Shown in pieces: positions 3,631 to 7,355 of a DNA stretch of 64,000 nt. Within the stretch, counting starts at the first letter, position 1; every line of letters starts with the position of its first letter. The DNA is from a virus. The notes below the pieces were generated by a model. That model was not told where the DNA came from, did no database searches, and worked only from the letters and a program-made list of their open reading frames with translations. A program made the translations under genes and the position numbers. The stretch spans positions 56,519-120,518 of IMG/VR virus record IMGVR_UViG_3300037189_006220, one strand, 5' to 3'.

Positions 3631-4578
3631 CTATAGCTTAGATGTTGGCTCGACAAAACGCAAAGCTGAAATCACTCTTGTAACGTCAATAGTTGCAACC
3701 CAAGAAGACAAATCATTTCGTCCGTAGCTGATGACAAACTTGTCTCCGTCTTGTATAAGACCAGAAGCAAACTCAACCCAACCCTCGTGAAAAATAAACT
3801 TATTAGAAATAGCTTCGATGAGTCCATCTTTATTGTGCTTAACAAATACGTGAGAATAACTCCGTAGGTCTAGCGGTTCGTAACTAAATGTTCTTGTATT
3901 GAATAGAACTTTCGGTTTCATTACCATATAGTGACCTACTGACAGGTAGCCATCCTCGAAAGGAATAAGCTGTGTTCCGCCCCGAAGCTTTTCAATTTCT
4001 TCAGGGACATCTCCAAGCTTGATAATTTTTTCGTCTTTAAAAATCTTGTTGGCTCCGTAGATATAGTCAAACCCGGGGACCGACTCTCCGGCAACTACCC
4101 CCCAATTCTTTTCGACTACCTTAGGAGTTTCTGTATCATGCTTTGCAATATATGTAGCCGTACCAGCATCAGGGTCTAGCTCAAATATACCAACTCGCGC
4201 TATCCGAGTATGTTCTTTCTCAAGAATAATCGCAGTAAGTTGCCACTTCCCACCGCGCCAGAACAAACGAGCATCTTCGATGCCACGCTTAAACGCGAGT
4301 TCCCCAATAGTCATAATCTCAATAAGTTTGACTGGCTTATAATTTTCATCAAGCTCAGAGAAGAAGAGTCGGTTAGCTATGTCATTACCAACAGTAATTG
4401 CCTCGTACCTCTGATACTCACCTAGTACATAGTTACTTGAGCGAAAGGTGGCATATAGCTTCCCGTTCGGATGACGAGCAATTGAAGGATTAAAAAGTGA
4501 CCAATGCCTCTTGACCGGCTCTAAGGCCCGGGCAATCATGGACGTAGTGAAGTCACTTGCGTCTATTACATCACTCAT
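3631..4578 (-). CDS. glycosidase-like beta-propeller (GH130/PH1107-like)
   Basis: FNPSI, GIEDARLF, EKNW, LRGGTQ, VEFASGL, ISYG.ND motifs. Confidence 0.7.
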   Translation of the reverse strand: MSDVIDASDFTTSMIARALEPVKRHWSLFNPSIARHPNGKLYATFRSSNYVLGEYQRYEAITVGNDIANRLFFSELDENYKPVKLIEIMTIGELAFKRGIEDARLFWRGGKWQLTAIILEKEHTRIARVGIFELDPDAGTATYIAKHDTETPKVVEKNWGVVAGESVPGFDYIYGANKIFKDEKIIKLGDVPEEIEKLRGGTQLIPFEDGYLSVGHYMVMKPKVLFNTRTFSYEPLDLRSYSHVFVKHNKDGLIEAISNKFIFHEGWVEFASGLIQDGDKFVISYGRNDLSSWVATIDVTRVISALRFVEPTSKL

Positions 4579-4607: not shown

Positions 4608-4829
4608 ATGGAAGAAAAGCTCACGTCTCTTGACCGTTGCGATAGTTGTGGTGCTCAAGCCTATGTCCGTGTCAACCTCGAAAGTGGAGAACTACTCTTC
4701 TGCGGTCACCACTTTAAAAAGAATGAAGACACGCTTGTTCTTAAAGCCGTAAGTATTGACAGCGAACTAGACAAGCTTTACCCAGAACCTAAGGCTAAAA
4801 CTCAGCCAGAACCTCAGGTAGTAGAATAG
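4608..4829 (+). CDS. small actinobacterial zinc-binding protein
   Basis: LT.LDRCD.CGAQAYVRV.L.SGELLFCGHH pattern. Confidence 0.8.
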   Translation: MEEKLTSLDRCDSCGAQAYVRVNLESGELLFCGHHFKKNEDTLVLKAVSIDSELDKLYPEPKAKTQPEPQVVE

Positions 4830-5086: not shown

Positions 5087-5095
5087 TGCTAAAAT
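5087..5095 (+). promoter_or_regulatory. extended -10 promoter of RNR locus
   Basis: TGCTAAAAT upstream of micro-ORF. Confidence 0.5.
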
Positions 5096-5165
5096 AGAAG
5101 AACAAACAATCCCCCTCTTGACCAAGAAATTGGTCATTTTTCTTCTGCCCTGAAAGGTCACAAAC

Positions 5166-5249
5166 ATGAATGAATCACAAGACACCGTTGGCGGATACTG
5201 CATCCCCGTAGACCCGATGGACATGCTTCAGTGCGATTCCTGCCAGTAA
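5166..5249 (+). CDS. 27-aa peptide resembling the redox CxxC C-terminal tail of NrdA
   Basis: Not in ORF track; MNESQDTVGGYCIPVDPMDMLQCDSCQ, RBS GAAAGG at 5152-5157. Confidence 0.75.
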   Translation: MNESQDTVGGYCIPVDPMDMLQCDSCQ

Positions 5250-5270
5250 GAATCTAACCCTCGGGTTAAC

Positions 5271-5313
5271 GCCCGGTGCTCCTCGTAGTAGAGTTGAGTA
5301 CCGGGCTTCTTTC
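5271..5313 (+). terminator. intrinsic terminator after micro-ORF
   Basis: GCCCGGTGCTC/GAGTACCGGGC stem + TTCTTTC. Confidence 0.6.
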
Positions 5314-5338
5314 ACCCCTCTAAGACAGCTAGGACATA

Positions 5339-6271
5339 ATGTACGCCCCTGAAACTCTGGTCTTGACATCGTCAGGACACAAGCCTCTTAGTGAGCTTGA
5401 TGGACACATGGTGGACGTATGGAATGGCGAAGAGTTTTCGCTAGTCCTAGTTGGACAGGCTGGAAAAGATAAGCCTCTAGTTACCGTTGTCTTTGATACC
5501 GGAGCAGAGATTACCTGCACTCCAGACCAAACGATGTTTGTCCAGAATGGATACTTCGACCACACAATTTCTCGTAAGCGAGTTGCAGAAGCACTGCCCG
5601 GAGAAAAGATTGTTAAGTCCGAGTTCCCACTCTTAGAGCACGGCACTGAGCTAATTCCTAATGCTTACACCCACGGCTTCTACACAGGAGCAGAACGGTT
5701 TAAGCGTCGCCCCGGAGTTGTATCAAGACTCGCTATCTATGGTGGTCGCAGACCATGTCTAGATGAGCTTGACCTAGACCCTCGGACAGATAAGACTAAC
5801 CTCTACTTCACTACAGAAATGCTTGGAGACTTCGAGGTTCCACTCAGCACTAAGTACTCACTAGAGTCCAAGCTTGAGTGGCTAGCTGGACTTTTTGATA
5901 GTGGTCTTATTAAAAGAAAAATTGGTTCACAACCAATGTGGCATCTCTACTCAAACAACTTTCAGTTTCTTAAAGACATGAAACTTTTCATGCAGACTTT
6001 GGGAAGCGATGTTCGAGTAGTAAAAAACGAAGATATGAACCGTCTTGAATACACACTACGGTTCTCTGGAAGACCGATGCAGAACTTACGAAAGCTCGGA
6101 GTCCCAGCAAAGTATATCACCATCCCTGAAGTATCTTACAAACGACGTGGAGTTGGTTATCCACGAATTGTGAGCATCATCGACAACAACCGCCGTGACA
6201 CGGTTTACACGCTCATGGAAAAGAAAACTCACCGAGCAGTGTTCAACGGCATCTTAAACGCAACCCAATAA
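5339..6271 (+). CDS. free-standing degenerate RIR1-type intein (Hint + LAGLIDADG)
   Basis: YAPETLVLT..VWNGEEFS..CTPD..YTHGF..EWLAGLFD..H.AVFNGIL follows RNR (RIR1) intein blocks; own ATG, AGGA RBS, in-frame TAG upstream, own stop. Confidence 0.85.
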   Translation: MYAPETLVLTSSGHKPLSELDGHMVDVWNGEEFSLVLVGQAGKDKPLVTVVFDTGAEITCTPDQTMFVQNGYFDHTISRKRVAEALPGEKIVKSEFPLLEHGTELIPNAYTHGFYTGAERFKRRPGVVSRLAIYGGRRPCLDELDLDPRTDKTNLYFTTEMLGDFEVPLSTKYSLESKLEWLAGLFDSGLIKRKIGSQPMWHLYSNNFQFLKDMKLFMQTLGSDVRVVKNEDMNRLEYTLRFSGRPMQNLRKLGVPAKYITIPEVSYKRRGVGYPRIVSIIDNNRRDTVYTLMEKKTHRAVFNGILNATQ

Positions 6272-6290
6272 CTAACAAGGAGAAACAACA

Positions 6291-7280
6291 ATGGCAATTC
6301 TAGGAACCGGCATCCAAGAGGGACTCCTCCTGAAGCCAGTCAAATATCAGTGGGCAATGGACTTGTACGACCAAGCAGTTGCCAATACTTGGTTCCCCAA
6401 CGAAATCCAACTAGGCGAAGACATCGCTGACTTCAAAAAGATGTCTGAGGATGAGCAACACGCTATTACGTTCTTGATGTCATTCTTTAACCCATCAGAG
6501 CTTATTGTGAATAAGGCTCTTGCCTTCGGTGTCTACCCTTACCTAAATGCACCCGAGTGCCACCTCTACCTTGCTAAGCAGATGTGGGAAGAAGCAAACC
6601 ACTGCATGTCGTTCGAGTACGTCCTTGAGACGTTCCCTGTAGACCGTAAGAAAATTTATGAACAGCATGTTGCTGTAGACAGCATCAAAGCCAAGGAAGA
6701 CTTCGAGGTCAAGTTCATTAAGCGCATGACCGAAGATACCATTGACATCAACACCGTAGAGGGAAAGCAGGACTTCGTCCGCAACCTCGTGGCTTACTCG
6801 GTCATCATGGAGGGTATCTGGTTCTACTCGGGCTTCATGGTGGCTCTGAGCTTCCGTCAGCGCAACCTACTTCGTAACTTTGCCTCACTGGTGGACTGGA
6901 TTGTCCGTGACGAGAGCCTTCACCTCAAGTTTGGTATCAACCTCATTCTTGAGGTACTCAACGAGAATCCTGAAATTGTCACAGACGAGTTCGCAGCCGA
7001 GATTCAGCAGATGATTTTTGATGCTGTTGACATGGAGATTACCTACAACAAGGAGCAGTTCCCCAACGGTATCCTTGGACTCAACGCTGACTATGTTAGC
7101 CAATACACCAAGTACCTCGCTGACCGCCGTCTTGAGGAGCTTGGATTCCCCCCACACTACAACGTGGGTAACCCTGCTAAGTGGATGGCTGCGGCTAATG
7201 ATACTCTTCAGCTTGTGAACTTCTTTGAGTCCACCAACACAAGCTATGAATCAAACGCATCAGCTGCTACTGGTAAGTAG
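6291..7280 (+). CDS. nrdB: ribonucleotide reductase beta subunit, class Ic-like
   Basis: W.P.EI, EEANH, EGIWFYSGF, RDESLH, NFFE..Y motifs; RBS AAGGAG. Confidence 0.95.
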   Translation: MAILGTGIQEGLLLKPVKYQWAMDLYDQAVANTWFPNEIQLGEDIADFKKMSEDEQHAITFLMSFFNPSELIVNKALAFGVYPYLNAPECHLYLAKQMWEEANHCMSFEYVLETFPVDRKKIYEQHVAVDSIKAKEDFEVKFIKRMTEDTIDINTVEGKQDFVRNLVAYSVIMEGIWFYSGFMVALSFRQRNLLRNFASLVDWIVRDESLHLKFGINLILEVLNENPEIVTDEFAAEIQQMIFDAVDMEITYNKEQFPNGILGLNADYVSQYTKYLADRRLEELGFPPHYNVGNPAKWMAAANDTLQLVNFFESTNTSYESNASAATGK

Positions 7281-7320
7281 TAAGTGATAGGCTCTTTAAA
7301 GAGTCAGTTGCTTTACCAAT

Positions 7321-7355
7321 AAGAAAGCCCCCACCAATCGGTAGGGGCTTTTCTT
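7321..7355. terminator. bidirectional terminator
   Basis: AAGAAAGCCCC/GGGGCTTTTCTT between convergent genes. Confidence 0.75.

Follow-up and report, generated by a model that had tools for sequence, protein, structure and literature searches.

A phage nrd locus with a separately encoded ribonucleotide reductase tail peptide, an extein-less intein homologue and a class Ic-type NrdB, in a genome record without a catalytic subunit

Results

A phage nrd locus without nrdA

We analysed the final 64 kb (the window) of the 120,518-bp IMG/VR virus record IMGVR_UViG_3300037189_006220, a record with direct terminal repeats (DTRs), and focus here on an nrd locus of three genes. These encode a 27-amino-acid (aa) peptide homologous to the cysteine-bearing C-terminal tail of the alpha subunit (NrdA) of ribonucleotide reductase (RNR), a 310-aa homologue of an RNR intein that lacks exteins, and the beta subunit NrdB. 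The record encodes no catalytic RNR subunit of any of the three classes (I, II and III). We consider it probable that the phage provides its own beta subunit, a diffusible CxxC tail and a thioredoxin, which together would serve a natively tail-less alpha subunit of the host, and that an intein-derived protein has been retained with them. The original prediction, made from the nucleotide sequence, had placed the three open reading frames (ORFs) correctly (Table 1) and had read them as a module working in trans with a host or distant phage NrdA. A module that works with a host NrdA is still the best reading because both small genes are conserved in relatives, with the redox role of the peptide being putative.

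The 27-aa peptide ends in QCDSCQ, its cysteine pair being C23 and C26. A profile (A1) was made from an alignment of 16 phage copies, in which D, P, C, C and Q are invariant (Cys/Gln columns C62, C65 and Q66), and this gave 298 matches at E<=1 among longer proteins. All 120 of the matches listed carry CxxC[QE] at the very C-terminus, and 97 of them are RNR alpha chains of at least 800 aa that align at their last ~20 residues. The matched alpha chains come from Cellulomonas, Demequina, Actinotalea, Pengzhenrongella and others, and the C-terminal ends of actinobacterial NrdA match A1 at E about 1e-7 in a search of 5.8 billion sequences, which is far beyond chance. In the fused proteins the motif comes after a conserved RRGFGF stretch and a long Ala/Pro-rich linker. 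A third cysteine is present in 94 of the 97 fused tails versus 5 of 120 free peptides, and in the window peptide one cysteine is displaced by one position. Judged by these alignments the peptide is a homologue of the extreme C-terminus of NrdA that is encoded separately, much as the original prediction had it. With its own ATG and stop in a genome without nrdA, it is not covalently part of an alpha chain. Pfam and NCBIfam contain no family for the peptide or for two cellular copies of it.

Phages carry 19 distinct nucleotide versions of the peptide gene, all ending C-[DE]-[SG]-C-Q-stop. Over the last 20 codons of these copies, the ratio of nonsynonymous to synonymous polymorphism (pN/pS) is 0.31 in frame versus 1.45–1.47 in the other two frames, and the ORF is therefore a coding sequence under constraint. 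Each of the three genes has its own start codon. An AAAGG Shine-Dalgarno-like stretch is found 9 nt 5' of the peptide ORF, and comparable stretches are visible 5' of the 310-aa ORF and of nrdB (AAGGAG in the latter case).

The absence of nrdA, also part of the original prediction, held up when the whole record was searched. PF02867, which was positive in 12 of 14 control genomes, found no match across the record, and tblastn with the 805-aa NrdA of a relative gave a best E of 1.9. No NrdD was found in the record either. One relative (G002) has the peptide and nrdB but no nrdA and encodes, on the same contig as its locus L013, a 687-aa monomeric class II RNR (L034:490-2553; PF17975 and PF21995) whose own C-terminus bears two cysteines four residues apart. 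PF02867 scores this protein below the cut-off, and we therefore searched with the G002 protein and with PF17975 as well. Neither search revealed a monomeric class II RNR in the record, and PF17975 was also without a match in five other alpha-less relatives, such that a divergent catalytic subunit missed by PF02867 was rejected. A thioredoxin gene is located ~13 kb upstream of the nrd locus; no glutaredoxin was found in the genome.

The tail is a separate gene in the closest cellular loci

We collected the 80 cellular loci with the closest NrdB, which are 78–84% identical to the window NrdB and mostly from Microbacteriaceae. In 71 of the 80, an nrdA whose last 60 residues lack cysteine is followed by a separate tail ORF and then by nrdB. 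The tail-less nrdA terminates shortly past a (K/R)GFG motif, and the tail ORFs are of 22–37 aa and stop/start-coupled. The tail is fused in eight loci (Aeromicrobium, Nocardioides, Parenemella, Propionibacteriales, one Actinomycetales metagenome-assembled genome (MAG) and one odd MAG), while the one other locus is a contig piece without nrdA. The intein ORF was found in none of the 80. The stop of nrdA overlaps the start of the tail ORF in 45 of the 71 split loci (4 nt in 29 loci, 1 nt in 16), and a slippery heptamer is present in only one of 79 loci; the peptide is therefore likely to arise by coupled re-initiation and not by frameshifting. Most cellular loci have the tail ORF in frame −1 with respect to nrdA because the stop/start overlaps are ATGA or TGATG, and in low-GC loci a stop directly precedes the ATG of the peptide.

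These gene arrangements indicate that a split tail is native to the likely hosts, the Microbacteriaceae, and that the split was not made by the phage. They are at odds with the part of the original prediction in which the tail had been left behind upon loss of the nrdA body. Indeed, the tail is also separate in three related phage loci that still have nrdA (L028, L030 and L021), and the window peptide, rather than resembling a remnant of a local nrdA, is most like an orphan chromosomal paralogue of Microbacteriaceae.

Stand-alone tails are numerous, with profile A1 finding 1285 clusters of short proteins at E<=0.01. The family includes RefSeq entries of 27–54 aa from Leifsonia, Galbitalea, Naasia, Gryllotalpicola and Yonghaparkia. 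Tail peptides of 27–36 aa (P0291, P0343, P0345 and P0360) carry the RefSeq label 'ribonucleotide-diphosphate reductase subunit beta', which is misleading since they are homologues of the alpha tail. Five whole Microbacteriaceae genomes (loci L120-L131, L132 and L133) contain 2–6 copies of the peptide gene per genome, one of which is within the nrd operon. The orphan paralogue adjoins genes for a pyridoxal phosphate (PLP)-dependent decarboxylase and an agmatine deiminase, with MaoC dehydratases and MurB near, and a further Aurantimicrobium copy (L130), between a lysis-type gene and an integrase-like ORF, is, to judge from its sequence, probably in a prophage. The window peptide is about 75% identical to the cellular 27-mers.

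Two cellular entries are unusual. The locus L062 is filed under a Pseudomonas synxantha MAG and has a split nrd operon with an NrdB identical to that of the Microbacterium MAG L063; it is probably mis-binned. In L088, also a MAG, the end of nrdA and the tail are in one frame, through an Arg-rich stretch resembling the −1 frame of the usual NrdA end, which is probably an assembly frameshift.

NrdB has a class Ic signature and a conserved C-terminus

The window NrdB scores 256.2 bits with PF00268 (cut-off 33.6) and 379 bits with the RNR-beta equivalog model NF007186 (cut-off 237), and every R2-like-oxidase model listed for it falls below its own cut-off. The best solved relatives are 1syy, 4d8f and 2ani, of which we take 1syy to be the Chlamydia class Ic protein and 2ani to be its F-to-Y mutant. 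NrdB has Phe at the column in which 1syy has F and 2ani has Y. At the first ligand motif, FNPSE in NrdB aligns with FSTAE in 1syy, Glu to Glu, and this residue is presumably the first metal ligand. In agreement with the original prediction, the alignment assigns NrdB a class Ic signature (Phe for the radical Tyr, Glu for Asp), with Mn/Fe as the predicted cofactor type. The last 40 residues, including the NTSYE stretch, are nearly the same as those of cellular NrdB from split operons, and binding of the phage NrdB to a host alpha subunit is therefore plausible.

Related phages retain the peptide in different gene arrangements

The relatives show a range of ARRANGEMENTS of peptide, intein, nrdA and nrdB, and tblastn detected the tail peptide in 18 of 33 related viral loci. 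Conservation of the three-gene order, a check suggested with the original prediction, is seen in L001, L029 and L031, which share with the window the arrangement peptide, free intein ORF, nrdB. In L030 and L021, an nrdA that is free of both intein and Cys tail stands between the free intein ORF and nrdB. In L028 the peptide is followed by an nrdA of 1120 aa, interrupted by a true intein ahead of the active-site Cys, and then by nrdB. The NrdA proteins of L028, L030 and L021 all end in ...KGFGF... with no Cys. The peptide stop and nrdB start overlap as TAATG in L010, L011, L013, L016 and L019, and the two genes lie kilobases apart in L007, L008, L009, L018 and three whole records. Three of five further whole records keep the peptide far from nrdB, two of these being DTR genomes, rated 100% complete, without NrdA. 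When the records of ten relatives were searched whole, PF02867 was above its cut-off in one and in none of the three rated 100% complete. A megablast search of the locus against 50,697 phage records gave no match.

NrdB is 83–91% identical across most of the alpha-less relatives. In a quick IQ-TREE analysis with a midpoint root, the window NrdB falls within an 11-row, all-virus group (Shimodaira–Hasegawa-like approximate likelihood ratio test (SH-aLRT) 96) with no nrdA in any locus; cellular and viral rows are interleaved in the tree. Sequences with fewer than 300 matched residues (L028, L029, L031, L032 and L033) were left out of it, and its 'split' labels are unproven for L072, with no nrdA in the locus, and for L088, with its odd single-frame fusion.

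An intein homologue under purifying selection after loss of its catalytic residues

The 310-aa ORF matches, by tblastn and at about 31% identity, inteins within the RNR alpha genes of 305 phage records. The homologous intein of L028 immediately precedes the active-site Cys of nrdA (SNL/C...GQ/CTEI), which agrees with the original assignment of the ORF to an RNR-alpha active-site intein without exteins. When 1.84 billion cluster representatives were searched, the seven best matches comprised six full-length stand-alone proteins of 314–324 aa (36–52% identity) and one 183-aa fragment, with embedded inteins ranking next. An AlphaFold model of the ORF (predicted local distance difference test score, pLDDT, 92.7; predicted template modelling score, pTM, 0.90) matches the endonuclease-bearing inteins 7qsu, 7qst, 1vde and 1dq3 (E 8e-13 to 2e-8), the inteins matched being TliVMA, PhoVMA, PI-SceI and PI-PfuI. 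The N-terminal domain of WhiA is also among the structural matches (3hyj_D, rank 46, E 0.014). On this model, the ORF is predicted to fold as a full Hint and LAGLIDADG intein.

There are no exteins: one stop lies two codons before the ATG and another directly after the last Q. The splicing residues are lost, with M in place of C1, TPDQ in place of TPYH in block B, and a stop after the terminal Q instead of the +1 C. Cys1 is lost in 10 of 10 free-standing sequences and the block B His in most, and the +1 Cys is gone. The LAGLIDADG motifs read GFYTGAE and LAGLFDSGL, versus GFFCGDG and LAGLLDADG in the embedded forms. We take the catalytic acidic position to be at the end of the motif, as assigned from I-CreI and PI-SceI, and the loss of both acidic positions is shared with the still-embedded L028 intein. 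The original description as a dead intein is thus apt for the splicing and nuclease residues but not for the protein, which is under strong purifying selection with a ratio of nonsynonymous to synonymous substitution rates (dN/dS) of 0.09 (L001 versus L029). Because this ratio is so low despite the lost catalytic residues, the ORF appears to encode a selected protein with neither ancestral activity. The alignments identify it as a descendant of the nrdA active-site intein that has apparently lost both splicing and DNA cutting. As a best guess, and with low confidence, it may be an inert DNA-binding factor or one that binds RNR proteins. WhiA, the analogy for the former, likewise has a LAGLIDADG fold without nuclease residues but differs in having no Hint domain.

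Discussion

A proposed hybrid of phage and host RNR

The tail of class I and II RNR alpha relays electrons to the disulfide of the active site, receiving them from thioredoxin or glutaredoxin, according to the available parts of two articles (PMC9669993; 10.1101/2022.04.23.489257). In the arrangement that we consider probable, the host NrdA is natively tail-less and would obtain its CxxC tail, of about 25–35 residues, from a translationally coupled cistron of its own. The phage NrdB would dock on the host NrdA through its conserved C-terminal alpha-binding stretch, the phage thioredoxin would reduce the free peptide, and the reduced peptide would in turn re-reduce the active-site disulfide of the host NrdA after each turnover. 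The supply of deoxynucleoside triphosphates (dNTPs) would be raised in this way without the phage carrying a 2.4-kb alpha gene. The intein-like protein may have been kept by selection as a catalytically inert DNA- or protein-binding factor.

More tentatively, and with confidence falling a little short of an even balance, we propose that three components make up the class I RNR of Microbacteriaceae and their phages. The tail of this enzyme would be a free, multi-copy and horizontally mobile micropeptide of 25–35 residues, phages would bring only beta, tail and thioredoxin to drive the host catalytic subunit, and the extein-less intein would be a new accessory protein of the hybrid enzyme or of its genes.

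Several observations weigh against these proposals. The record is rated 71% complete by CheckV despite its direct terminal repeats, and the host is identified only by NrdB similarity and the WhiB gene. An untethered 27-aa peptide loses the advantage in effective concentration that a tether gives, and free tails are so far known as genes. No RNA run was found to contain the stretch, the sole matching run being DNA and possibly the source sample. The presence of 2–6 peptide copies in cellular genomes, some in non-RNR contexts or a likely prophage, leaves room for a function beyond RNR, and the role given to the intein-like protein is a guess. In addition, G009 (rated 100% complete; NrdB 66% identical) has NrdB with neither alpha nor peptide, and beta can therefore persist without the peptide; this genome (loci L024 and L025) belongs to a more distant phage group.

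Alternative explanations

It is unlikely that the peptide acts against the host enzyme, competing with the host tail or draining thioredoxin so as to shut down or re-route host RNR. C-terminal R2 peptides are classic competitive inhibitors of RNR, and both the likeness to cellular 27-mers and the retention of the peptide where nrdB is distant would suit such a role. However, the peptide retains the CxxC pair and the full 15-residue motif, just as functional tails do, it is carried together with a thioredoxin and an intact beta, and where a related phage encodes an alpha of its own, that alpha itself requires a tail. Quite improbable, in our estimation, is a decaying locus in which a recent loss of nrdA left the peptide, the intein ORF and possibly nrdB behind without function. 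The retention of nrdA between peptide and nrdB in L021, L028 and L030 and the lost catalytic residues of the intein are what such decay would leave, but both small genes are under purifying selection, NrdB is well conserved across most alpha-less relatives, the window groups with viral loci that all lack nrdA, and alpha-less DTR genomes retain the peptide unlinked from nrdB.

We regard as highly improbable a chemistry unrelated to RNR, whether with NrdB as a ferritin-like oxidase acting on the peptide, in the manner of a ribosomally synthesised and post-translationally modified peptide (RiPP) pair, or with the peptide in some other thiol-dependent process. The translational coupling of peptide and nrdB in five viral loci, the radical-free Ic-type site and the extra peptide copies in non-RNR contexts are compatible with this, but the peptide is homologous to the NrdA tail, the profile scores place NrdB with RNR beta and not with the listed R2-like oxidases, NrdB retains the alpha-binding C-terminus of operon-encoded cellular NrdB, and the cellular peptide occurs inside nrdA-peptide-nrdB operons. 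Recoding, by which programmed frameshifting or read-through would join alpha and tail and leave no free peptide, seems to us extremely improbable. The prevalent −1 frame and the fused proteins reported by some gene callers, such as P0058 and P0119, would fit, but that frame is accounted for by the stop/start overlaps, slippery heptamers are nearly absent, low-GC loci place a stop directly before the peptide ATG, and in phages the peptide gene is found 5' of nrdA or, where nrdA is missing altogether, tens of kb away from nrdB. Programmed frameshifting was rejected on the grounds of the heptamer count and the origin of the frame bias.

Comparison with known systems

The proposed supply of a free tail to a host alpha subunit has partial parallels. 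The fused NrdA tails of Cellulomonas, Demequina and Aeromicrobium share with the phage peptide a ~20-residue motif with C-x-x-C-Q at the extreme C-terminus, whereas the phage tail is a separate 27-aa product without the Ala/Pro-rich linker as a tether. The closest precedent found for a free RNR redox tail is, by analogy of function only, the NrdJa/NrdJb pair of P. aeruginosa, in which redox-active C-terminal cysteines are likewise on a separate polypeptide. This enzyme is of class II and NrdJb, a subunit of roughly 25 kDa, is not a micropeptide, whereas the phage/host system is of class I. As given in the available part of the source, NrdJb performs thiol-disulfide exchange for NrdJa, is required in vivo and binds NrdJa with a dissociation constant (Kd) of 54–690 nM (PMC4520616).

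Phage nrd loci have been reshaped by homing-endonuclease genes before. In Aeromonas phage Aeh1, NrdA is reportedly encoded by genes in pieces, with alpha split into two large halves that are both kept. The present locus, by contrast, has no alpha body, and its endonuclease-like gene is an extein-less intein. Yeast HO is an intein-derived free-standing gene with an active nuclease and differs in this respect from the 310-aa ORF, which keeps the whole intein fold but has lost the residues of both activities. In T-even phages the free-standing endonuclease gene mobE lies between nrdA and nrdB, and a defunct endonuclease gene can persist in a phage nrd locus, to judge from the accessible portion of that work (PMC2790892).

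The available part of a 2013 survey by Dwivedi et al. reports two phages with only nrdB, leaves the function of incomplete RNR suites open and describes no tail peptide or intein ORF in these phages (PMC3653736). Reviews describe the cysteine tail of class I RNR, in the parts available, as a disordered part of the alpha chain (PMC9669993; 10.1101/2022.04.23.489257). In the literature outside subscription journals, neither a free tail peptide of a class I RNR nor an intein ORF lacking exteins turned up in our searches; what is new here is the free tail of a class I RNR, together with phages that carry beta and tail but not alpha. If correct, the diffusible micropeptide would make tail docking, the rate-limiting re-reduction step and thioredoxin specificity directly testable with synthetic peptides, and it would explain what phages gain from nrdB without nrdA, the point left open in the portion of the 2013 survey available (PMC3653736). 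It also draws attention to a widespread small gene that RefSeq mislabels, and the intein-derived ORF would be a clear example of selection retaining a mobile element that has lost both of its activities.

Locus layout and neighbouring genes

The coordinates of the locus are collected in Table 1. A stable hairpin directly 3' of the peptide stop is also found in L001, L028 and L002 (z −2.9 to −4.6 in the four sequences folded, window included) and is present regardless of which gene comes next. A role in partial termination or in stabilising the transcript is possible, either of which would mark the peptide as a unit of its own. The terminator-like sites are weak evidence because the consensus scan found 4 where 3.1 were expected.

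Table 1. Features in and around the nrd locus. Positions are those of the window, except for the thioredoxin gene, which lies outside it.
Feature	Position	Strand	Basis
ORF of 315 aa, no Pfam family	3631-4578	-	Pfam scan
DUF7455 zinc-ribbon-like gene, directly 5' of tail peptide	4608-4829	+	Pfam
Terminator-like hairpin and T-run, 5' of peptide gene	5119..5146	+	Consensus scan
Stand-alone RNR-alpha tail peptide, 27 aa, ending CDSCQ-stop	5166..5249	+	ORF, profile homology, selection
Stable hairpin directly 3' of peptide stop	5271..5306	+	RNA folding
Extein-less intein homologue (predicted Hint and LAGLIDADG fold), 310 aa	5339..6271	+	Alignment, model, structure match
NrdB, class Ic-type RNR small subunit, 329 aa	6291..7280	+	PF00268, NF007186, alignment
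Terminator-like hairpin, 12-bp stem, between convergent nrdB and NlpC/P60 genes	7324..7351	.	Consensus scan
Thioredoxin (locus L119), outside the window	G000:C1:48401-48700	-	PF00085, 99.8 bits

The neighbouring genes encode a DUF7455 protein, a WhiB-family protein, a dCMP (deoxycytidine monophosphate) deaminase and an NlpC/P60 protein, and the record therefore points to an actinobacterial phage. The 315-aa ORF is kept beside the DUF7455 and WhiB genes in several relatives, at 33–44% identity. The DUF7455 gene is also directly 5' of the tail peptide in L021, L028 and L030, and in L007, L009 and L038 the peptide is preceded by a Cys-rich ORF of 86–87 aa that resembles it.

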